A DNA stretch of 64,000 nucleotides, taken from positions 1,798,001-1,862,000 of the forward strand of contig JAYWIR010000007.1 in the NCBI GenBank assembly GCA_036172245.1. Reading direction: 5' to 3'. Position 1 is the first letter of the stretch; each line of letters opens with the position of its first letter. The notes under the pieces were generated by a model that was given only the letters and a program-made list of their open reading frames with translations, did not search any database and was not told the origin of the DNA. The position numbers and the translations under genes were made by a program. Below, in pieces: positions 28,090 through 64,000 of the stretch. This DNA comes from Raillietiella orientalis. Taxonomy: Eukaryota.

Positions 28090-28227
28090 ACTGTCTTTAT
28101 GCATATATGCCTTTATCCAATGTATACATGACTTTTTGATACCAAGGTTATGCTATAATTAAAAAAAAAATGATATTCTGGATGTGGCTCAGATGGTGAA
28201 CATAAAACCTAGGCTGGTATAAAATAT
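28090..28227 (+). repeat. Left arm of 138-bp near-perfect inverted repeat (partner 32113-32251)
   Basis: actgtctttatgcatatatgcc...cctaggctggtataaaatat is the reverse complement of 32113-32251, apart from two differences in the central A-run. Confidence 0.97.
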
Positions 28228-32112: not shown

Positions 32113-32251
32113 ATATTTTATACCAGCCTAGGTTTTATGTTCACCATCTGAGCCACATCCAGAATATCATTTTTTTGTTAAATTATAGCATAACCTTGGT
32201 ATCAAAAAGTCATGTATACATTGGATAAAGGCATATATGCATAAAGACAGT
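32113..32251 (-). repeat. Right arm of inverted repeat (partner 28090-28227)
   Basis: atattttataccagcctagg...ggcatatatgcataaagacagt; the arm ends about 57 nt upstream of the acceptor at 32308. Confidence 0.97.
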
Positions 32252-32352: not shown

Positions 32353-34156
32353 ATGAGCAGCCTTAAAATGAGTAAGTAACTATTGAATGAAAGTTAATAA
32401 GTGTATTCGAATTTCTTTTAAAAGTGAGCCATTTATGATGGAATGCTCAGGAATTTGACTGGTTGATTTTATTTTGTCATTTGGCTTTAGCAGCTCTCTC
32501 AGTCATTGCATTGAATACAAGTATCAGAGATTGAAGTGATTGCAAAGTTAATCATTGCCTGATTGCTATTCATTAATGTGTGCTTCTAATTTAATGGTCA
32601 TGAAATCTTGGGAATATGAGTAGAATGTTTTCTTACTAACAATTCTGTAACATTTGTCGCATATCAAGTTTCAGAAGTTCGATTTTGTTTGTCTTTAATT
32701 TATTTTTTCATTATTTTCCGTTTTATTTTGCCTTGATCTGATCTGGACTGATTGGTGTGTGTTGAGTTGTTCACTGAATCCTAGCAAGTTCTCAACTTTG
32801 TTCATTTTTTGAATGCATGCTTTTCTTTCTGACTTTCATTTTCTGGATGCATTTTCTTATCTCCTGACAAAAGACCAAAGAGTTCACTGTTGTTTTCCAG
32901 TTATATTGTTTTGTTTTAGGTAAAACCAGTGTTGGTGATTTGTGCTACGTAACAGCAAAATATGACTATCTTGCCCAAGGAAGTCAGGAGTTAGACCTAC
33001 ATAAGAATGAAAAATTGTTGCTGCTTGATGACTCTAAAAATTGGTGGAAGGTGCAAAACAGTCGCAATCAAGCAGGATATGTACCAAGTAATTACGTTAA
33101 ACGAGATAAGCACTCTATCTTTGACAGGTAGTTGAAGGTTGTGTATTTTTTTTGTCATTTTCTGTTTTTTGGTAATTCAGTATTAAAAACATTGGTAAGA
33201 CAAAGAAAGGATCTGGTTGCCAGACTCTTCCATCAGGATCTCCTTCCCATGAGCAAGATTCTCCTCTGACTACACGCTGTCTGCCTGTTGATCCTTCCGA
33301 AGGTCTTGGATTCGCAGTAGTTAAATACAATTATCAGGCCCAGCAAGCTGATGAACTCTCTCTGCTTAAAGGAAACCGTGTCTTAATCCTGGAAAAATCG
33401 AATGATGGCTGGTGGCGTGGACAATTAAGTGATGGCAAATCAGGATGGTTTCCCAGCAACTATACTCTAGAGGAAGATGAACAAGTGCATACATATGCAC
33501 GTGCCGAAAATGTATTGGATATTGTGGTTTCCTTATACAGTTTTGTAGCTCAGAATGACCAAGAGCTTAGCTTTAGCAAGAATGAAAAACTCGAAATTCT
33601 AGATCGACCATCATCAGATCCTGACTGGTACAAAGCCCGCAATTCCAAAGGACAAATTGGTCTTGTTCCCCGTAACTATTTGCAAGAAGTGCATCGAATA
33701 GAACAAGATCCGTATGAGCCTCACAACGATTGCATGAAAGAAAATTCCAACAGCCGTACACCCGCAACTCTAGGAGCACAAGACAAGATCTCATTGATGG
33801 TCAAAGATTGGTATTATGGTAATATATCGAGAGCCCAAAGTGATGCTTTGCTCAGTGAATTTGGAAGAAACGGCGATTTCTTAGTACGTGATAGTGAAAC
33901 CAATGTAAGTCGAAAGTTTTCGTGTAAGTCGTGTTTCATTTGCTTTCAGACTGGGGACTTCTCAATTTCTGTGAAAGCCGCAGACAGGAATAAGCATTTT
34001 CGAATTCAGGTCGAGGGCACTCAGTATTGCATTGGACAACGACGGTTTCCATCCATTGATATGCTTATTAACCATTACCAGCGTGCTCCAATCTTCACCA
34101 ACCAGCAAGGGGAAAAATTATACTTAGTTCGACCCCTGCCACGTTCCAGTCTTTGA
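32353..34156 (+). CDS. Nck: Nck/dreadlocks SH3-SH3-SH3-SH2 adaptor protein; 4 coding exons 32353-32371, 32920-33127, 33181-33904, 33950-34156 (1158 nt, 385 aa)
   Basis: The spliced translation reads [45 protein letters not shown] (SH3-1), [30 protein letters not shown] (SH3-2), [32 protein letters not shown] (SH3-3) and [47 protein letters not shown] (SH2). All introns are GT-AG with consistent phases. The first coding exon is the least certain. Confidence 0.96.
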
Positions 34157-52757: not shown

Positions 52758-54500
52758 TTTCACACCCGGGTGGGCCGGGGAATTTATTTGAACAATAAGC
52801 ATACAAAGTGTAGGGCCATTGGCGCTACAAAGTTCCAAAGTGTTTGGAACCTGCTGAGTAACCGGCAAGGTTTGCCACTGCCACAGAGGAGGAAGGGGCA
52901 AACAAAAATAAAAATAAAGCAAAAAAAGCACTATATACAAAAAAATGGGAGGGTTAAAGAAGGGATCACATTCCGTTCGAGGCCGTCCTCTGGATCCTTT
53001 CCAAGATGTTGGCAAGTTCCTTCTGAATGTATCCCAGATGCAGCCATCTTGCTGTCGTCCTCAGAAAGCTCAGGGCGAAGCAGATGGCACCTCCATCGTT
53101 GCGTCCTCTTGTTAAGTAGCTCCAGGCCACCACAATTCCACGTTGGCAGCACAGAGCTGATAGGGAAACGGCGTCGTGCGCTTTAACACGTCTCTGGGGA
53201 AGTTCGTTGGTGCATCTAGGGCTGTTGCGAAACGCAACCACAGGAATTGGAGGAAAACACAGTCAATAAGCATGTGCAAAAGGAATTCCCGTTCCCCGCA
53301 CCAGCATCAGTTTGGGTCCACAGCCCCCCATGTACAGTGAGATCGGCGGGCGTTTCTGGGGAGGCCCCAGGTAAACACCAAAAATGCCGAGTCCTGCCAC
53401 TTAAGGGGGAGGGGCTGATTGTTCTTCTGCGCTGAGGGCTACTCGAAATCTTACTATGGGTTTCCCAGCAGCTCACCCCAGCGCAATAGTCCCTTCGGTG
53501 GGGCACTTGGGGTCGTAACATCGGTTAGCTGCCCCATGGTCCAACCACCTAATTCCTTCTCTTTGCCGAAGATTTCACAACGGACCTCCCATTTGGACGT
53601 CTGACTACTGCTCAGGTTCTCCCTGAGGTAGAGCAGAGTCGCGGCTAGGGAGGTTCTTTCAGATCACGCACGCGTGGTGGGCTGCACGATGACATCCTGT
53701 AGAGAACGGTTGTTGTAACAGGAGTGCAGCAGTCGCTGCCGCATCTCCGGGATCGCTTCGTTCTTCTGAGTCCATGTGCGGTTTCCTGTAGCCAGACACT
53801 ACTGTTCGCGGGATCGCAGAAGACCCATCCCATGTTCCTCCTCCTCAGCGCGGTCCCCCGCCGAAGCTGCAATCCGCAGTGGCAGATGTTGCGGCCACGG
53901 AGCGCAAGGAAGGAGGCGAGTTACGCCTTCCCGGTGACCTGTTCGACGAGGAGGCGAGCAGGGTCGCACCAGGTGGTGCCCCAAAACTTCGCTACTTCCT
54001 GCCCTTTACTGGGGCTGAAGCTCCAGCCGCTCAAGCATCAGGGGGCCGAGACCGGCGTCCCAGCGCGGAGCGTCCCAGTCCTTCATACGGACTCGGGACC
54101 TCCCTTTGCTCCAAAGGGCGATTCTTAGGTCGTTCTTCGTCTGCTTCTTGATCCCCTCAGGCAGGAAGCAAACAAAAAGCAGGGGACGGAGGAGGGGGAC
54201 CACGAACGTGTTCCACATCACAACCCGTTCCGGTAGGCAAAACCTGCCTCCTTGGAACGGACCGATCGCCGACTCTGCCTTCTGGAGGCAGTTGGACCAC
54301 GCCTCCGCCGGAAGATAGTCCCCCAACGGCACTTCGATGTAATTGAAGTACCGAACCGTGGGTGTCTGCAAGCGGATCCAGTCCAGATGCTCTGCCGACG
54401 CCGCATCGACTGGCATCACGGACGACTTCACTCTGTTCACCTCGAGTCCTGTTCCACATCTTATCGGCTCGAAGAAACTTCACGTGCCGACGCGAGACGG
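52758..54500 (-). mobile_element. 5'-truncated decayed L1/Tx1-like LINE copy (RT C-terminal region to 3' end)
   Basis: VNRVKSSVMP..DWIRL..YFNYIEVPLG..AWSNCLQKA..ERVVMWNTFVVPLL..DAGLG; T-rich 3' UTR and the conserved terminal hairpin at 52761-52788. Confidence 0.85.
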
Positions 54501-54529
54501 ACGTGTGCTTCTCTCACTTCCCACCTTGT

Positions 54530-55150
54530 GGTTCTTTTCGTTTAGTGAGTGTGTTGTGCGGAGATTCGGTGGTGGATAGGGCAGCAATGCCTGATACCAC
54601 ACCACCACTTGATATCATACCAAAGAAGGCCAGGGGGAGATGTCTGCATCTCACCCAGAGGCAGTGGAATTGGGGGAACTGGCCCCTCCAGAATCGTCCC
54701 TCGCGCCGGCGAGGGCTTGGAACTCAGTGGCCGCAGCGCCTACGCCTGCAGCCATGGCTGAGATAAAAGCCTACATGGAGGGTGGTACAACCCATCACTC
54801 TCCTATAAGGTAGGGAACTTATATTCTCCTGAAAGGCACGTCCCATCAAGGAGGTCGTCCGCAGTGAATTGCACAAATTCTCCACGGTGCACGCTCTGTA
54901 AGCGAAGCCCACTCTCTTCATGGAGTTCGACGGGCCTCTCTACGGTCTGTAGGCAGCGTGCGTCACCGTCCGCGAGCGCTGTATTTGCCCCACAAATTAC
55001 AGGAACCGATGGACCTGTGGTACATGGGAAAACCCAGGTACTGCGGCTTCTGTAGCTCCTCTGTCCACCTCAAAAAGAGGTGCTCGAATGTACAGTGCCA
55101 ACAGTGAAAAGCCACGGGGCACACCAGTCAGGTGTGCCCACCAAATACCG
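54530..55150 (+). mobile_element. LINE ORF1 (gag-like) fragment with two CCHC zinc knuckles
   Basis: CGFCSSSVHLKKRC..QCQQ*KATGHTSQVC at about 55040-55140 resembles the ORF1 knuckles at about 57870-57950. Confidence 0.7.
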
Positions 55151-55569
55151 TCCGCGCTGCATCTGTCAGAAATGGCAAAAAGCGCGCGGCCCCAAAATTT
55201 AAAAAATTAGCAGCGAAATCCGCCGCGAAAGATAACGGCCACAAAAGACGCGACCTCCGCGCCAACGGTCAAGGCCATCACCAAGGCTTCGGCGGAAAAT
55301 TCCGGGAACGTAAAAGAAAGTAGCCAGGAGCCTCGTTGGCTGGTGGTCAGTCCAAAAAGAAAAGAAAGCAGAAGCAAAAAGGCGTCGTGAAACGCAACAT
55401 GAACACTCCGCGTAGCGAAAAAACAAAAAGCTGCAGCGTGGTTGTTGCTTACCTGTTTGTGCCAGAACCTTCATTCGAAAACGAACAAACCATCTGGGAA
55501 CAAAGTTACCAGGCAAAAGGAAGAGAAGTTTAAGTGGAGGGCTCCCCGACAAGCAGGTCGGACACACTG

Positions 55570-57050
55570 AGTCCGGAACGGGAGGGGGGAACAATAAATA
55601 AATACGAAAAGATGCGGAGGGGCAGGGACAGGAGTCTTTGGCTTCGGTCGTTCCATCCTTTCAGAACCGGTGCTGAATTCCGGAGACCTCCTTCCTGACT
55701 TCACTGATGTGAAGCCACCTGGCAGCCATCCTCATGTTGGACGCTGCAATCCTGGTGATCTCTTTTGGAATCGCTCGCGACTCCAACAGGTGGCGGGCCA
55801 TGACGATGGCGTGGATGCAACTGATCGTTGCGATGGCCGCACCTAGCGAGAGGCTTCCGCACGTGAGGAAGCGGCGCATGGCGTCCATTGCAGTGTCCCC
55901 CTGGAGCAAGAGCGCTGAAGGCAGCCTCCGCCACAGTCCTTGGAGGGCACTGCAGTCGAAGAGCAGATGCAGGAGTGATTCCGCTGCTCCGCACCTTCCA
56001 CAGTTCGGGGAGGCGACTTCCCTGGAAACCAGGTGCACGCGCTGATTGCAATGGAACCCCCAATGCAACAGAAGAAGCGCGGTCTGTTTCCATCGGAGGG
56101 GGAACACAGATGCGTTCACGCATGAAGGAGGGACCACAAGTTCTTCAGGGGGCACACTCAAGAGTTCGCACCACCGAAGGAATCCCTTCGCACAACCACG
56201 AGGAGTGGCAGCGTCTGCTAGCTCGCTCGTCTTCCAGCCACTAAACGGTCTTATTTCTCCAGCAAGCCTGTAGGAGACGTTCCCCCTCGTGGGTAGGCAA
56301 CTGTCGTTCCCCTGTGCTTGTCCTGAGGGCAGACAGCTCTGTGGCAAGGGACGTGGAGGCCAGGCGAGTCCACTGGTCCCGGTCCTGCAACACATCCTTC
56401 ACCGGAGGCAAGGGGAAAGGTTCGCTCAACGAAGTCCCCCAAGAGGAACTTCCTGATGCGTTGCCCAGAACAACAACACCTCCTGCCACCAAGTGTTAAA
56501 GGTGGTTAGGCGGCAGGAGATCGACGAATGTGATTCCAGGAGCGAGGCGAGCTGCTTCAGCGGGAAGCCGAAACCTCTGGTGGCGCGCTGGGAGTGCGGC
56601 AGCAACGAAAGTAGTCCATCGCCTGGGTACAGCGCCTCAGCAGCAGGGGCGTGGGAGCACGGCACGGAGTCGTTTATAGCTTGGCACAAAGTGCCAGCAT
56701 GCGGAACTGCACTAGCAGCCCAATTCTGTCCAGCGTAAGGATGCTCATGTCGGCATTCCGACGCGAAGCCGCCAAGTCCTTGAGGAGTATCCCGGACCTC
56801 GCAGGTCGCCACAGAGCGTCTCAACAGGCGTTGCACCCGGAGCTTGACCGAGTAGGGACGCGGACAAACAAAAAAGATGGGATGGAGGAGAGGAGCGACG
56901 GAGGTGCTCCACATGTAGACCCGCAAGACGAAACTGCCACGTTGGAACTGGCAGAGAGCGCCGATCCGGCCTTGCGAGGAGTCGGACGTGTTCTTCGTTC
57001 GCTCCGCGAAAGGGAAAGGGCTCGGGTTTTCGAGTCGGTGACCCGGACGA
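55570..57050 (-). mobile_element. Decayed L1/Tx1-like LINE 3' portion with C-terminal CCHC (zf-RVT-like) motif
   Basis: MWST.VAPLLHPIFFVC..QGLGG; FLRWCELLSVP..LLHWG..SPNCGRCGAAESLLHLLFDC; T-rich 3' UTR at about 55570-55640. Confidence 0.85.
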
Positions 57051-57109
57051 GCTGCGCTCGAAAGGGTTGTTAACTCGCAAGTGCGCCCCACCTTTAAGGT
57101 GCATATTTT

Positions 57110-60100
57110 TCTCAATTTTTTTGTTTCCGGCGTGGTTGTGTGGCTAATGTGGTTTGTCGACATGGGAAAGAAACCAGTCAGCAAAGACCCGCCTGCCACT
57201 GCACTGAAGGAGAAGCAGACCGCTTCGTAAGAGGGAAGTCAGGGAGGCTCCGATACGAGGAACGGGGAAGTCTCCCCTCCCACCCCACGCTTGTGGAGCG
57301 ATGTCGCCGCGGCAGCAGTGGCTAACAGGAGACCTTCGGCGGATGCGGAAATGCAGGCATATATAGCCTGCATTTCCATATAACTGCATTTCCAGCCTGC
57401 ATCAATTCGATACAAGATAAATCATCTACCTATTAAGGGGGAGATCCGCGAACTCGACAACGAGCTCACAAGGGTCGAGGTACGCGAGGGAGACTTGGAG
57501 TCCCTTATACTGTTTGAGGGATTCGAAGGCTTGGAATTGGTCTGCAAAAGTACAGAGCTCATCCAGCGTCTTCTTCGAACACCATTGAGCATCGGGGGAC
57601 GAAGGGTTTTCCCTTCACGAAGGATCGGTCTTTCGTCCTCCACTTGAAAGGCATCCGGTCGGACGTGTCCGACAGCGATGTGATTGGGGCTCTGGCAGAT
57701 CACGCCACAGTGCACACCCTTGACGGAAAGGAAATCTTTTGAAGAGTTTCAAATCTGCGTACAGCAGGCTTGCTGCGGAGCGCGTTTCCGCCGAAAGGGA
57801 AAAACTTCTTCATAAAGTGGAGATCGGCGGAAGAAACTAAAACTCTGGTTTGTGGGGAAATCCAAAGTTGCAGCGAGTGCGGCGCAGCGGGGTATCTCAA
57901 GAGGAGGTGCCCGAAGATTGAGTGCTGCGGCTGCAAGCAGCTTCAGCACTTGAGGCTGGTAAGCGTGCAAACGCAGCAGAAGCTTCTTGTCCAAATCAAA
58001 AACAGCCCTCGACTCGCGATGCGACATCCGCAGAAAAAGAGGACGCTCCGGAGGAAAGGGTCATTCCTGGAAAGAACCCTGGGGAGAATCCCGGAGGAGA
58101 AAGACGGCTCCTGGACAACGGTATCCAGGAAAATGAAGAGCAGGAGTCGACGCGGGCGCCTTCAAGTGCGCATGGAGGAACGTACTCCATACTCCAAAAC
58201 CGCGCAAAACACGTCCGGCCCATGCAGAGAACAGGTGGCGCGTCGCTCTGCACGGTTTTTGAGGGAAAACGAGGTCATCCTCGAATGGTGCGAAGATGGC
58301 GCCCCTGTGATTGCGCCCTCAAATATTGCACAAGTAAGCGCAACTGAGGACGCGACTGCAAGGAGGCGTTGCCTACGGCAACAGAGAGGAAACTGCGAGT
58401 CGCAAGCTTCTGACTCCGAGAAGGAGTTTGATTCCGTTGCGGCTGCAGGCGATGCTCCATCTGTCGCGCGAGGGCGTAAGCCAAAGGAGCGCAGGGGTAA
58501 GGCGACGGACATGGAGCAGGAAGAGGACAAGGAAATGGCCTCACCAGACACTTCCAAGGATGGCTGCAGCAGAGAGAGCCATTCCAGCTGGAACATGGAC
58601 GGTCTGCCGGCACTTGCTGCATCCATGCCCCTCCCACCAGAAAATGAGGCGGCTCCCTGCCTTGACGCGCAGCCTCGCTTTCGCTCGTGGCCTGCTCATC
58701 ACCTGTTGGAATGTCAACGGGCTGCACGACGGTGAGAAGAGGCGCACGGTGGCGGAAACCTTGCGCTCTTTCGATCTTCCTCTGCTTTAGGAGATGCACC
58801 AGATCTCCCAGCAGAAAGTCGAGGATATCGAGAGACGTGCGAGGGGCAAGCTACGTTGTCAGAATGGCTCAGCACACTCGTGTGGGGTGGCCTTCTTTTT
58901 GAAAGCGTCCGTAAAGTGTGCCGTGCTCTAGAAGCGTTTAGACGAGGAAGATCGAGTATGGCACCTTCTTCTGGGGTGGTCCAACTAGATTTAACTCGTC
59001 GTCACAAAGCAGTTTAAGCGCCTAGCGGTAGGCAGAGGCACTATGCAGAGAACTATGCTGTTCCGGGAAGTATGGAGTCAAACCTGTACCTCGCGCGAAT
59101 CTGGATACGGTTGCAATAGCGGGTTGCAGCGGAGGCCCGTAGGGATAAGATCGCCTGGATGGACTTGGTGAACAGTACTCGCAGACAGGCAGAGGCTCCA
59201 GTTGCTCTCGCGATCGTGGTCGACTTGAACAAAGACTCAAGAACGATTTTCACCCGGTTTTCGCCGGGGCATTTATTGAAACAAACTCTAACACGCGCTG
59301 TGGCTGGACCAGTGATGGATGACCACGCCCGATGAAACAATACAGAGCCTGCTGGGTAACCGGTTCACAGACCGGTACGGTCCACCACAGCAGCAGGGGG
59401 AAGGGGGAACAAACAAAAAACTAAACAAAAAGAAAAGAAAACGTGGGAGGGTGCGGGAAGGAATCACTGTTACTGCTGGGGCCGTTGCATCCTTCGCAGG
59501 ATGCCGGCAAGCTCCCTCTGTATTCCTGGATCCAGGTGGGGCCATCGCGTCGCCCTCTCCAAAAATTCGGCGGCGCACTGGATGGCACCCTTATCGCAAG
59601 GTCCTCCCGTTGCCTTGATCCAAGCGGCGACGATCCCGCGAAGGCAGCACAGGGCTGCTAACGAAGTCGCAGGCCGAAGGGCGTCGGAAACGAAGAGGGC
59701 AACAAAGCATTCGACTGCGTGAGTCAGGAGATCCTTCTAGAGCTCTTGGAACTCCTTGGACTTCCACTTTGCTTGTTGCAGTACTGGAGCTCACCATGGC
59801 GCGACGCTTTAATAAACATTGATTATAGACGTCACCACGTTTACGGCTGGTGCCCCGGAAAATCAGGCAAATTGACAGCCTGAGTCCCATCTTGTTCAAT
59901 GCCTACTTCTAGTTGGTGCTGAGCGAGTATAGGACAACAGTGGCCGACCTGGCGACGTCTTGCCCGTGCACGCCGGCCGTGGCGACCTACGCTGAGACCC
60001 GCTTCTCCTGTTGCCCAAATCCACCCCGGTGACGAAGCTCGAGGAATTCTTCGAGCAGATACGTCGGGAAGCGATCTTGCGCGTCAATAGAGCAAAGTCC

Positions 60101-61781
60101 ACAGTCGTGCCGGTGGGAACGTCGCTGGAGGGGCAGTCGGATTGGATCCGCCTGAGGATCCCCATAAGCAGGTCCTTTAAGTACCTTGGTGTATCAGTGG
60201 GCGGCTTCTGCGCTGCACAAGCGTGGTCCAGCTGCCTTCAAAAAGCAGGAAAGATTCTCGGCCCGTTCTGGAAGGCAGGTTCTACTTTCCGAAGCGGGCC
60301 TCGATCTGGAGCTCTTTCGTGGCTCCCCTACTCCGATCGCTTCTTTTTGTTTGTTCCCCTCTCATCGAGACGAGACAACAGGACGACGGACTTTTGAGTA
60401 AGACCTTCTGGGGCTTGTTGCGACCCCGCGTTCGCCTCAAGGACATTACTTCTCCCCGGATGGATGCCAAACTCGGCATCCTCACCCTGGAAAGACTGGA
60501 GCTCCAGCTCCATTTTCGAAGACTCGCCCTGATGGAGAAGACATGGGACCAGCAATGATGTCTGCCCGCTCGCCACATTTTGCGGTGGCATCCGGTTAAG
60601 AGGAACCAGTATCCCTGGTTTTTAGCAGCCGGAAATGGACGAAGCTCTTAAGGTTTCCTCTGAGACAGCTTGTCTCCCTGCTATAACTTAACAAGTGGAC
60701 CTCCTACCGCCCTGTGAACTTGAATGCTTGGCGGCAGGAATCTGTGGGCATGTGGGCTCGGCTCACTAGCACCAGGCCTGAAGATCTCGTTCCGGTTTAG
60801 CGATTCGGCGGGATGCATTTGCTGAGAATCGTCGACGAACCTACCAAGTGGTCTCGCGCATCCGCCACATCTTTGGCCGCAGCGCTGTCTTTCCTATGGG
60901 AAAGCAATGACAGTTGCTTACCGTCTAGGTGGGAGTTCTCTTGCAACATCGATGGAGTGGGAAAACTCCTAGGCGCATTCTTCACGAAAGTGCTAGCCGA
61001 CGCGGCCATGCCCTGTTTGCAGACGAAGGGATTCCACTGATGAGCCTACACTTTGAGTGTGCTCCCGGAAGAACTCTGTGTCCCTCTCCTGTGTTTAGAT
61101 TCTTCTGTCCTCCCTCTCCGATGGTAACACGACATGGTGCTGTTCATGCATTAGGATCTTCCCTGAAACGAGCGCATGCAACACGTGATGAGTGAGAGTA
61201 TGTCTGCCGAGTGTGTCAGGTGCAGGGAGATCGAATCGCTCTCCCACCTGCTAATGAACTGCGGCGTCATCCGTCCTTGGCGAAAGAGGCTGGTTTCGGC
61301 CCTTCTCCACCCGGAAGATGTGTCTGATTATTTGCTTCGTCGCTTCTTCATCCAAAACGGCTCTCAGCTGCCACCGTGATGGCGACTTTGTAGTGCATCT
61401 GAGGCATCCTCACCGCCCAATACTCACTGGAGTTGCATCAGCAAGAGCGAGAGGCTGTCTGCATCGCTATGGTCTTTCTGACGAATGCAAGCAGGTGGCC
61501 TCGTCTGAAACAGGAAGTCAACAGGGAGATCAGCAACGAACAATTTAGAAGATAGGCAGCAATCCCGGTGTCCCCTTCCCCTCCCACCAGAGATTCATTT
61601 ATTTTATCATTTCCTCAATGATGCAGACAATATCTTCTCTGTCCTGCGAGTAGGTGAGTCCTCCCACGATGAACTTCTTTTCGTTTATTTTTGTTCGATT
61701 CACAGAAGACAACGTTCCTTGTTTTTATGTAGTTTTTTTACTTTTTTATTGAAATAAATGCCCTGACGCAACCGGTGAAAA
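57110..61781 (+). mobile_element. Near-full-length decayed L1/Tx1-like LINE (ORF1 zinc knuckles, APE endonuclease, partly deleted RT, CCHC, 3' UTR), interrupted by a nested antisense copy
   Basis: ORF1: CSECGAAGYLKRRC..CCGCKQLQH. EN: LITCWNVNGL..KRR..LL*EMH..GVAFFL. RT: KIRQIDSLSPILFNAY, LRVNRAKS, FKYLGV, AKLGI. C-terminus: CVRCREIESLSHLLMNC. The terminal motif is at 61753-61781. Confidence 0.88.
59247..59740 (-). mobile_element. Short 5'-truncated copy of the same LINE family nested antisense in the 57.1-61.8 kb element
   Basis: Terminal AATAAATGCCCCGGCGAAAACCGGGTGAAAA on -, and a 3' UTR similar to 52760-52970 (cctgctg(a/g)gtaaccgg; gg(g/a)atcac). The 5' boundary is approximate. Confidence 0.75.
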
Positions 61782-62105
61782 GCCTTTTGAAGGCAGGCCG
61801 ACCACGCTTCTGACGAGCAGAAGTCTCCCAACAAAGCGCCAAGGTACTTGAAGTACCTTGGCGCTTGGGGATCCCCAGGTGTATCCAGTCGTCCTGCCCT
61901 CTCACGACGCACCCACCGGTACTATCCTGAACCGCGTCCTGTTGACTCTCACGCCCGCAACCCGGTGGATCAGCTCAAAGAAGTCCTCGAACCTTGCTTC
62001 CTGCAACCCCGCGAACGGTAGCGCCTGCCTACAGGAAACCGCCCGCACGTGGGGGAGGAGCCAGGAACAAGGCACGGAATAGGTGCGCCGGTTCCTGTTC
62101 GTGCA
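61782..62105 (-). mobile_element. LINE RT fragment
   Basis: RFEDFFELIHRVAGVRVNRTR..VPVG; YFKYLGALLGDFCSSEAWSACLQKA. Confidence 0.8.
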
Positions 62106-62109
62106 CAAC

Positions 62110-62992
62110 AACCGTTCCACGCTCCGATGTATCCTGAAGTATCCCGGAAAAAATGCATGGGCAGGAAGAACTCCCCTCGCCGCAGCGCTGCCCTCCTTCA
62201 GGGAACAACTGAGCAGCTTCATGGCTGCGAAATATGAAGTTGAGGTGAACATCTCAGGAAGTGAAAAAGGACTGGACGAGTGGAAGACGGGCCAGCTCAC
62301 CGACGCTGTGACCGCGAGTACACCACCTTACGGACTCCTGCGCTGGTGCGAGCCGCTGGATGTTCCGGTGGAACACCATCTTCCGGTGGCCCCGGTACTT
62401 ATGGACAACCGCACCCTCCCCATGAAGTGACAGAAGTCGGCGCTGCTGCATTGGGGTCTCCCATAGAACTCCCGCCGTCACCACTGGATGCGTGTGTGTG
62501 TAGACCCCAACTGTGTGAGGTGCGGGGAACAGGAATCCCTCCTCCTACCTGCTAGTGAATTGTGTTGTTGCCCTTCGGCCCCTTTGTGGACGCTTTGCTG
62601 CAACCTTAGGATCCCCCGGTGGCAACTCCAGGGACGTTTGAAAACCCCTCTTCTTTCGCGACACCCTTCGGCCAGCAGCCTCCCTTGCAGCCTTGTGTTC
62701 CCTACACGGTATCGTCGCAGACTGGAGCAAAGCGACGGGAGAACCCAGCGATAGGGATCCCTATCGCTAGGTTGCCATCCATTTCACCATCCAATTCATT
62801 AGAATAACGACGCGATGGTCCCACCTGGAAATGAACATTCAGTTAGACCTTGCCGGCATCCTGGAGAGGATGGACCGGACTGCCACCAGCAGACAGTGAT
62901 CCCTTCCCGAAGCCCTCCATAGTGCATTTATTTTTATTTTTTGTTTTCTTTTTTTTTTCTTTTTGTTTTCCCCCTCCCCTCCGCTGTCGTTG
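62110..62992 (+). mobile_element. LINE 3' fragment with CCHC motif; its terminal motif appears displaced to 63488-63517 by a nested copy
   Basis: GLLRWCEPLDVPVE..LLHWGLP..DPNCVRCGEQESLL; GTGATCCCTTCC followed by a T-rich 3' UTR. Confidence 0.8.
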
Positions 62993-63470
62993 TTTTTTAC
63001 CCAGATTTCCGAGGCATTTAATATTAAAATTTTATCAATGAATTTATAATAAAGTCTTTAAGCTTTTGTTCGTGGTTCCGCCTGTCTTGCAACACTTGTC
63101 TTTACCGGCCCGCAGGCAGGTAAGGTGTTCACCTCTGGTGAAGGGGATGGGAAAACCACAAAAAAAAATAAAATAAAATGAAGAAAGAAAAGGGGAGGGC
63201 AATGTTTTTCGGGAAGGGTGAGGAAGGGAAGGGATCACTGCTCGCCGCGGGTGGTCCTCTGCATCCAGTTTTGGATGCGGACAAGTGCTGGTTTTAGAAT
63301 TCTAAGCCGGCGCCATCGGGTAGCCTTCTCCATGGAGATGACTGCCCAGTGAATGGCATTCCGGCTGTTGTGGCCGTAGTGGACCGCGCCAGTCTGCCTA
63401 CCGGCGACCCGGCAGGTGTCTTTGAAATTGGGCGTGGTTGGACCACTAGTCCAACCACAATTTTCTCTGT
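62993..63470 (-). mobile_element. Short antisense LINE 3' fragment nested in the 3' UTR of the preceding copy
   Basis: Terminal ATTAAATGCCTCGGAAATCTGGGTAAAAA on -, a T-rich UTR, GTGATCCCTTCC at about 63230, and MEKATRWRRL..LVRIQ resembling the ORF2 C-termini of sister copies. Confidence 0.7.
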
Positions 63471-63555
63471 AATGAGTTTGTTTTAAAAATAAATGCCCCA
63501 GCGCACTCGAGAGGAAATAGAGCCTTGCTTCCGGGGTGGACATAGGCAGCAGAAG

Positions 63556-64000
63556 TTTCTCACCCGGATAGGCCGGGGCATTTATTATTGAAATTTTTAT
63601 ACAAAAATTTTATAAGTCTTGAATAAGTTTTGTATCGTGGTAGAACACTTGGCTCTACCACGCTCGGTAGACTTGTCATGAACCGGTATTAAGACCGGTG
63701 AGGTCCTCTCCAGGGGCGAAGGGGAAGAGAGAAACAAAACAAAAAAACCAAAAGAATTGAAAAGGGGAGGGGAATGTAGGAGGAGAAGTAGATCATCTGC
63801 GTAAGCTGCCACGGACGGCGTACACAGAGAGAGGTTGGGCAGGTTGATCAGTGTCTGCCTGTACGCTCTCAACACTAACTCGAATTAGATGCTGGAGTGC
63901 AGAGGGCTTAAGCTGTTTGCCCTTCCTGATGCCTCTGCGTAGAGCCACACCGTACACGTGGCAGTCGCTGAAACAAAAGTCGACTAACGCGTGGCGCCAG
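63556..64000 (-). mobile_element. LINE piece: 3' end joined to RT core (YADD), internally deleted; continues beyond the window
   Basis: Terminal AATAAATGCCCCGGCCTATCCGGGTG. RGIRKG..(S)PL and VAAYADDLLLL (YADD at about 63792-63803). Confidence 0.8.

Follow-up and report, generated by a model that had tools for sequence, protein, structure and literature searches.

Structured 3' ends occur in several groups of long interspersed nuclear elements (LINEs), and the general idea of a 3' hairpin in such elements, those of the L1 clade included, is not new. Here we describe a clade of L1-like LINEs from Raillietiella orientalis whose 3' end is a short cassette made of AATAAA, a terminal hairpin and a fixed end without a tail; the AATAAA-hairpin arrangement was first noticed in a 64,000-nt stretch of the 210-Mb assembly (contig JAYWIR010000007.1, 1,798,001-1,862,000; hereafter, the window). 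Nearly all work on how L1-type elements select their RNA and start the copy concerns human L1, whose dependence on poly(A) is documented (PMC7617806, PMC12503042, PMC3649969). The closest described case is a monocot L1 lineage (LINE1-1_ZM, monocot 1a), for which Ohshima (2012) reported a conserved, covarying 3' hairpin common to ZmSINE2/3 (PMC3472496; PMC3747384). According to the same work, 224 of 233 flowering-plant L1 families end in poly(A), as does Chlamydomonas L1-1_CR, while nine plant and five algal L1 families have no 3' repeat (PMC3472496), so tail-less L1s are not unheard of.

The elements described here share with LINE1-1_ZM and L1-1_CR an L1-type second open reading frame (ORF2), a 3' end conserved to a much higher degree than other parts of the element, and a hairpin with compensatory changes and a conserved loop. 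Unlike the monocot lineage and L1-1_CR, they carry no tail, their last hairpin lies after AATAAA and has invariant arms, and their end is exact; moreover, no partner among short interspersed nuclear elements (SINEs) was seen, no SINE-like head being visible by eye upstream of the cassette at 51 of more than 2,140 ends (no transfer RNA search was run). UnaL2 (L2) and SART1Bm (R1) likewise have stem-loops in the 3' untranslated region (UTR), tied in their case to self-specific reverse transcription (PMC3747384, PMC7265360), but they belong to other reverse transcriptase (RT) clades and either end in TGTAA repeats or need poly(A), which leaves variable tails. With R1Bm and R2Bm the elements have in common site-specific insertion and an accurate 3' junction, and R2 has a structured 3' UTR bound by its RT (PMC7265360, PMC10499050); however, R1Bm and R2Bm target 28S ribosomal DNA, R2 uses a restriction-like endonuclease, and in these systems downstream target homology aids accuracy, a role that we consider here only as a rival explanation. 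Tx1-clade elements (e.g., Tx1 in Tx1D, Tx1-Mar) are also animal L1-group elements with family-specific targets in other mobile elements, but the targets named for them are DNA or long terminal repeat transposons, RNA genes and microsatellites rather than sister LINEs, and the SINE partners proposed for them have poly(A) (PMC4494074). Human L1 ORF2p, finally, has a stem-loop binding surface that helps to set the start of target-primed reverse transcription (TPRT), but it needs about 20 A's and A-specific contacts and leaves variable poly(A) tails (PMC10830416, PMC7617806).

Against this background, the end described below would work like that of a stringent LINE, a type already known, also within the L1 clade. 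The original prediction, made from the window, suggested that this L1/Tx1-like family may use a structured 3' end, placed after the poly(A) signal, for RT priming or 3'-end formation; structured 3' ends were already published for the L1 clade (PMC3472496). What sets the present elements apart is that they lack a tail completely, end at an exact nucleotide whatever the target, and have a layout that recurs in a distant second lineage. The end fixed to the nucleotide across differing targets, and the distant lineage with its other hairpin, had been overlooked in that prediction.

The cassette as the element's own 3' end

The pattern put forward in the original prediction has 352 exact matches in the genome, and its relaxed form (AATAAA-YGH-CCCGG-N4-7-CCGGGT) has 2,140, with no match to the reversed control in either case. 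Independently of the motif, 80 ORF2 C-termini (31-98% identical to the query) were found by protein search only, in 400 kb of LINE-rich contigs; the cassette follows the stop codon by 157-316 nt in 79 of them, and the sole exception carries an internal deletion. Since the elements insert into each other, empty sites could be read from other host copies. The possibility that the motif is an insertion target site, a check proposed along with the original prediction, was rejected, as neither the empty sites nor the 5' junctions contain it. Because the cassette follows 79 of 80 ORF2 ends and is missing from empty sites, it is, by its position, the element's own 3' end, probably cis-acting, across a genome-wide L1-like radiation. 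AATAAA itself is present in 185 of 195 pattern-selected ends, and in 77-79 of 79 ends at each of its positions in the protein-anchored set.

Outside this genome, eight metagenome matches to the tail were taken as chance, since none lies near ORF2-like sequence (best E 0.098) and seven of the eight are near-copies of one unrelated stretch. The searched literature, which did not include Repbase and most subscription papers, yielded no description of this tail.

Identity and mobility of the elements

An intact copy (locus L037), lying upstream of one genomic end, encodes ORF1 (553 aa), which contains CCHC knuckles, and ORF2 (1,215 aa), in which Exo_endo_phos (E 5.5e-11) and RVT_1 (E 2.3e-22) were recognised together with a zf-RVT match below the cut-off (E 0.021), and no RNase H was listed. 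The best solved-structure relative of ORF2 is human L1 ORF2p (E 8.5e-52; R2, E 7e-16), L1 and R2 being the named reference clades in the RT comparison. Both the domain content and this best match bear out the earlier assignment to L1-like LINEs. Database matches are 20-34% identical and nearly all unnamed, the Atlas clusters are generic RT, and no named Tx1 sequence was present among the 120 matches listed or their clusters. With an endonuclease of the apurinic/apyrimidinic (APE) type, an RT, a C-terminal zinc finger, a separate ORF1 and no RNase H, the elements are, by domain architecture, LINEs of the L1 group (L1 plus Tx1). The only close relative found outside the genome is an ORF1 relative (protein P0178; 62% identity) on a 2.1-kb Joint Genome Institute contig.

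The copies had previously been treated as one family. In a quick RT tree with long-branch warnings, in which this genome's RTs form their own branch, 80 fragments reduced to 25 representatives (<85% identity, median 62%), 24 of which fall on one branch (Shimodaira-Hasegawa-like approximate likelihood ratio test, 100); the last representative, at about 30% identity (the distant lineage described below), attaches to this branch at a support of 91, under a long-branch warning. On this tree the supposed single family is a clade of many families, and the six copies first described in the window belong to several of them.

Dispersed copies are mostly 5'-truncated, some to less than 250 nt, and carry target duplications, element sizes ranging from about 120 nt to 5.6 kb. 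Read from the insertions, the 5' truncations and the 10-17 bp target duplications show that the elements move by TPRT. Families reuse fixed positions inside sister elements, which amounts to a target-sequence preference, a trait of the Tx1 clade. Among 57 ends, insertions into sister ORF2 are antisense in 25 cases and sense in five, and those in coding regions are mostly antisense (L037:3970-9660; loci L081-L120); one family always inserts in sense at ORF2 residue 172, and reused sites are often stacked head to tail. At another place (L112-L114; G000:C84, 117-129 kb), three near-identical ends with the same flank and a spacing of about 3.65 kb represent a tandem duplication.

Full-length 5' ends carry GGACGTG (L037:3965-4000 and other junctions), which resembles a downstream promoter element. 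In three families, a host A in a CAG(T/C) context lies 27 nt upstream of GGACGTG, while two other families do not fit. The insertion target might supply the initiator for full-length elements.

An exact end without a tail

Taking the first base after CCGGGT as position 1, we compared ends with their empty sites. In the protein-anchored set (61 of 79 ends matched), identity to the empty site jumps from 0.13 at position 5 to 0.97 at position 6, and when positions 16-55 alone served to select the empty site (testable for 92 of 195 distinct ends), it rises from 0.15 to 0.87 at the same step. Of 28 candidate target duplications (10-17 bp, some of them possibly chance), 16 start at position 6, eight at position 5 and four at position 7. 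As judged from these junctions, every family ends 5 nt after CCGGGT, that is, 4 nt past the last pairable base, and host DNA begins at position 6. The element end lies 24-25 nt downstream of the hexamer in the protein-anchored set. The 5-nt distance from CCGGGT to the end is unchanged at host ORF2 residues 71, 80, 172, 284, 311, 367, 502 and 587, and over 122 flank classes among the 195 ends.

The last bases are mostly A (position 4 in 186 and position 5 in 160 of 195), and the A run from position 4 has a modal length of two (113 ends), being three long in 38, zero or one in 42, and at least four in two; the third A of such runs matches the 23% of host A at position 6. A run of at least seven A's follows only one of the 2,140 exact matches, against a chance background of 0.3%. 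A hidden poly(A) tail was rejected on these counts, and the long poly(A) that the original prediction found wanting in the window is wanting genome-wide, as is the poly(A) tail of variable length that marks the 3' junctions of relaxed, mammalian-type L1s. One copy alone combines the exact motif with a long run of A's (about 15; L151, G000:C46:276586); no target duplication was detected around it, and the site may be A-rich by chance.

Where families end in A, only 13 of 86 cases have a host A at position 5; hence, no A:T priming is needed there. One family instead ends in T (22 of 30 copies). In the ten copies whose host base is known, this T is the host's in six and not the host's in four, two of the four cases resting on a related empty site and not on the insertion's own duplication. 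Because the T differs from the host base in these four cases, the last base is a legacy of the donor and does not in every case stem from poly(A), although the excess of T among hosts is a hint of pairing.

Conserved hairpins and covariation

Three conserved hairpins, rather than the two first named, were found, H1 and H2 upstream of AATAAA and H3 as the terminal one. RNAalifold, applied to 20 copies (17 of 19 cluster representatives and three window copies), predicts the H1 apical stem-loop and H3. Among 20 representatives, two-sided changes occur at three of six pairs in outer H1, five of six in H1 apical, eight of ten in H2, and none of seven in H3, the scored pair structure having been named from the same sequences and H2 being out of register in some families. 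Pairing cells reach 81.6% vs. 74.8% in shuffles (0/500 shuffles reach this value), and 28-42% in slid registers. With just the 5' arm and the loop used to anchor H1, pairing of the 3' arm reaches 82% vs. 68% in shuffles (19 clusters, 0/5,000). Moreover, H2 regions fold at z <= -2 in eight of 19 representatives. These changes show H1 and H2 to be kept as structures; the earlier claim of pairing maintained by compensatory change stands for the upstream hairpin and was overstated for the terminal stem. A role of H2 as a ruler was rejected, since the distance from H2 to AATAAA differs between families.

The evidence that H3 folds is indirect, in that the loop of 5-6 nt has many sequences, the bulged base is variable, and C-to-U changes keep G-U pairs. 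A conserved 3' stem-loop with compensatory changes, the trait of stringent-type LINEs, was found in H1, H2 and the terminal hairpin of the second lineage described below, and H3 is without such changes.

A distant lineage with another hairpin

A second L1-like lineage (locus L101, 1-2200, G000:C129:40001 onward; loci L172-L185), whose RT is about 30% identical with at least 150 matches, has an end in which AATAAA and four bases precede CCCCA, a three-pair inner stem, a bulge on the 3' side and TGGGG, with three to four A's at the close. All 13 distinct tails examined downstream of a protein C-terminus have this form, and the empty sites begin directly past the A's. The end lies 32 nt after the hexamer, which itself follows a UTR of only about 95 nt. 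The pattern has 216 matches vs. one when reversed and two with a non-complementary 3' arm. By eye, the loop-closing pair is G-C instead of C-G in about 22 of the first 100 matches listed, probably tracing back to a single event or very few; exchanges of A-U for U-A and of C-G for U-A in the terminal hairpin are seen in single copies. By comparison of the two ends, the layout of AATAAA, hairpin, about four unpaired bases and end is common to two distant lineages with different hairpins. Most of the second-lineage copies examined share one insertion site within another repeat.

Proposed mechanism and alternative explanations

The reading that we favour, with a chance of being right that we put slightly above even, is that the terminal hairpin serves as the ruler by which the start of reverse transcription is set. 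ORF2p would bind the structured UTR and use the terminal hairpin to measure, so that complementary DNA synthesis would start a fixed four bases 3' of the stem; RNA beyond this start, be it a poly(A) tail 24-25 nt after AAUAAA or read-through sequence, would be skipped, and AAUAAA would probably be retained for a stable, translatable messenger RNA. We prefer this reading because the end distance is fixed over many targets, the final T is inherited, H1 and H2 covary, and the second lineage has a hairpin in the equivalent place. In human ORF2p, which has a stem-loop binding surface, unpairing the stem leads to heterogeneous TPRT start sites and product lengths (PMC10830416). Several observations weigh against the ruler. 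Human ORF2p has 15 nt of single-stranded RNA between the stem and the active site (PMC10830416), compared with a stem-to-start spacing of 4 nt here, so either the geometry differs or the stem opens. The CCCGG/CCGGG stem of H3 is invariant; hence, covariation does not prove H3, which could be a sequence signal in the main lineage, and in most of the 19 representatives it folds about one standard deviation better than shuffles (range +0.8 to -4.1). The shuffles behind the pairing values ignore relatedness, and same-family copies are not independent events. Positions 6-9, beyond the junction, are family-specific too (purity 0.77-0.93), and the host T found at position 5 in six of the ten known cases of the T-ending family would also be expected if read-through RNA paired with the primer.

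This last point belongs to an explanation in the manner of R1Bm and R2, which we consider unlikely, in which the transcript would reach into the donor's target duplication, anneal to the nicked target and so fix the junction, the hairpins would only recruit ORF2p, and the 5-nt distance would be inherited. Families indeed reuse fixed sites, dispersed copies keep a consensus of 4-5 nt directly past the junction, and the position-5 T is both inherited and enriched in hosts; endonuclease preference alone, however, would account for a consensus beside the nick. The next 40 nt past the ends (T, 0.20) contain no U-rich downstream element, so that cleavage may be weak. It is also reported that R2Bm starts more accurately in vitro with 3' homology (PMC10499050), and R1Bm is stated to require downstream target sequence (PMC7265360). 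Yet the distance has outlived many target switches (at least eight host positions), and directly after a switch donor pairing would be inapplicable, and 37 candidate pairs, in a noisy test, gave no excess of donor-type bases in the 3' duplications.

Host factors rather than the RT might read the hairpin, which would then merely place cleavage and polyadenylation, with ORF2p starting at the first one or two bases of the tail; we regard such a pure processing signal as quite improbable. AATAAA in 185 of 195 ends fits it, as does an end 24-25 nt past the hexamer, within the 10-40 nt window, and structures between signal and cut have been reported to bring both together (PMC5707805). Positions 3-4 read CA in 90 ends, AA in 40, TA in 33 and GA in 23 (family sampling inflates CA), and in the second lineage the end, 32 nt past the hexamer, consists of A's only. 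Nevertheless, tail-primed reverse transcription should give varied A runs, contrary to the single long run counted above, which is below chance, and an inherited T at position 5 cannot derive from poly(A) polymerase. The weak folding scores and the missing two-sided changes of H3 would also suit a terminal inverted repeat that stays unfolded and serves as a sequence motif for RNA or double-stranded DNA binding, its symmetry being incidental. We give this very little credence, given that the loop varies in length while the arms stay complementary, that changes between families either allow wobble pairing or affect the bulged base, and that the terminal hairpin of the second lineage covaries. 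The ruler, read-through pairing and processing can act together.

A broader proposal, which we put forward tentatively and with some doubt, is that an old L1-type branch replaced poly(A) priming by a hairpin-plus-four-base ruler that needs neither tail nor target pairing. The rule would be common to two lineages with RTs about 30% identical, whose hairpins share only a C-rich/G-rich stem, and would let families switch targets freely while their ends stay exact. The clade offers thousands of natural junctions, intact ORFs and many target specificities with one fixed end. With it, Ohshima's idea of a stringent ancestor, in which ancestral L1s were structure-guided, becomes directly testable in an animal element. 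Furthermore, a short RNA tag that lets a target-specific enzyme of the APE type make exact junctions free of a tail could interest builders of retrotransposon gene-insertion tools.

Arrangement of the window

From 52.7 kb onward the window consists of nested, decayed LINEs in both orientations. All six 3' ends originally quoted are present where they had been placed, as are the upstream hairpins at 59359, 63682 and 63102, which lie 82, 96 and 80 nt from the hexamer; a seventh, decayed end at 55475-55446(-) had been missed. Cassette spans are counted from AATAAA to the last element base. The three best copies (copies 1-3) have 0-1 mismatches to the consensus, and no match with up to three mismatches arose in 20 of 20 block shuffles of the window. 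Three copies with four mismatches were accepted by their position at the expected element 3' end; shuffles give 2-12 matches at up to six mismatches.

Copy 1 (52759-52788, minus strand) comprises AATAAA, H3 and a GTGAA end, followed by AT-rich host DNA; the 5' arm of its upstream hairpin is missing. It terminates element A, whose decayed ORF2 (52975-54476, minus; tblastn) corresponds to residues 701-1214 of an intact copy. An additional element has left its 5' end and a remnant of its ORF1 (54497-55185, plus) antisense in the element A RT. The seventh cassette, that of element C (55446-55475, minus), was identified by eye, being strongly decayed and failing the six-mismatch scan, but its upstream hairpins are still recognisable; the decayed ORF2 of this element (55664-56959, minus) covers residues 770-1208 with a weak zf-RVT match.

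Element D (57255-61367, plus) retains an ORF1 remnant (57255-57961), an endonuclease (58623-59015) and the RT to the C-terminus (59704-61367), and hosts copy 2, a 5'-truncated antisense element inserted at about ORF2 residue 585; copies of the same type elsewhere land at residue 587. The cassette of copy 2 (59247-59277, minus; loop CGAAAA, end GAAAA) is accompanied on the same strand by H2 (59300-59328), the H1 apical stem-loop (59359-59376) and an ORF2 C-terminal remnant (59497-59694; residues 1138-1205). Element D itself ends in the decayed copy 5 (61753-61781, plus), after which antisense RT sequence of another element follows.

Element E (61963-62872, plus; ORF2 residues 908-1208) has a 3' UTR that is interrupted by copy 4 and ends in copy 6, the split being our reading of the sequence with a degenerate flanking repeat. 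Copy 4 (62994-63022, minus), an ATTAAA variant with its H1 apical at 63102-63123 (minus), lies antisense within the H1 region of this UTR. The hairpins of element E itself (63388-63458, plus) are H1 apical at 63388-63405 and H2 at 63434-63458, and the decayed copy 6 (63488-63517, plus) forms its end. Copy 3 (63557-63586, minus; loop CCTAT, end GAGAA) has its own hairpins upstream (63636-63699, minus), H2 at 63636-63662 and H1 apical at 63682-63699.

Rfam at gathering thresholds gave no match to a known structured RNA in the whole window. The GC content shifts sharply, from 0.47-0.70 in 1-24000 to mostly 0.29-0.39 in 26000-52000. Two inverted repeats of about 140 nt (28090-28227 and 32113-32251), 98-99% complementary and about 3.9 kb apart, probably delimit a young DNA transposon. 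The sole host gene identified in the window is represented by an exon of an Nck/dreadlocks-like SH3-SH3-SH2 adaptor (33176-34156, plus), whose nearest Atlas clusters are mostly arthropod.

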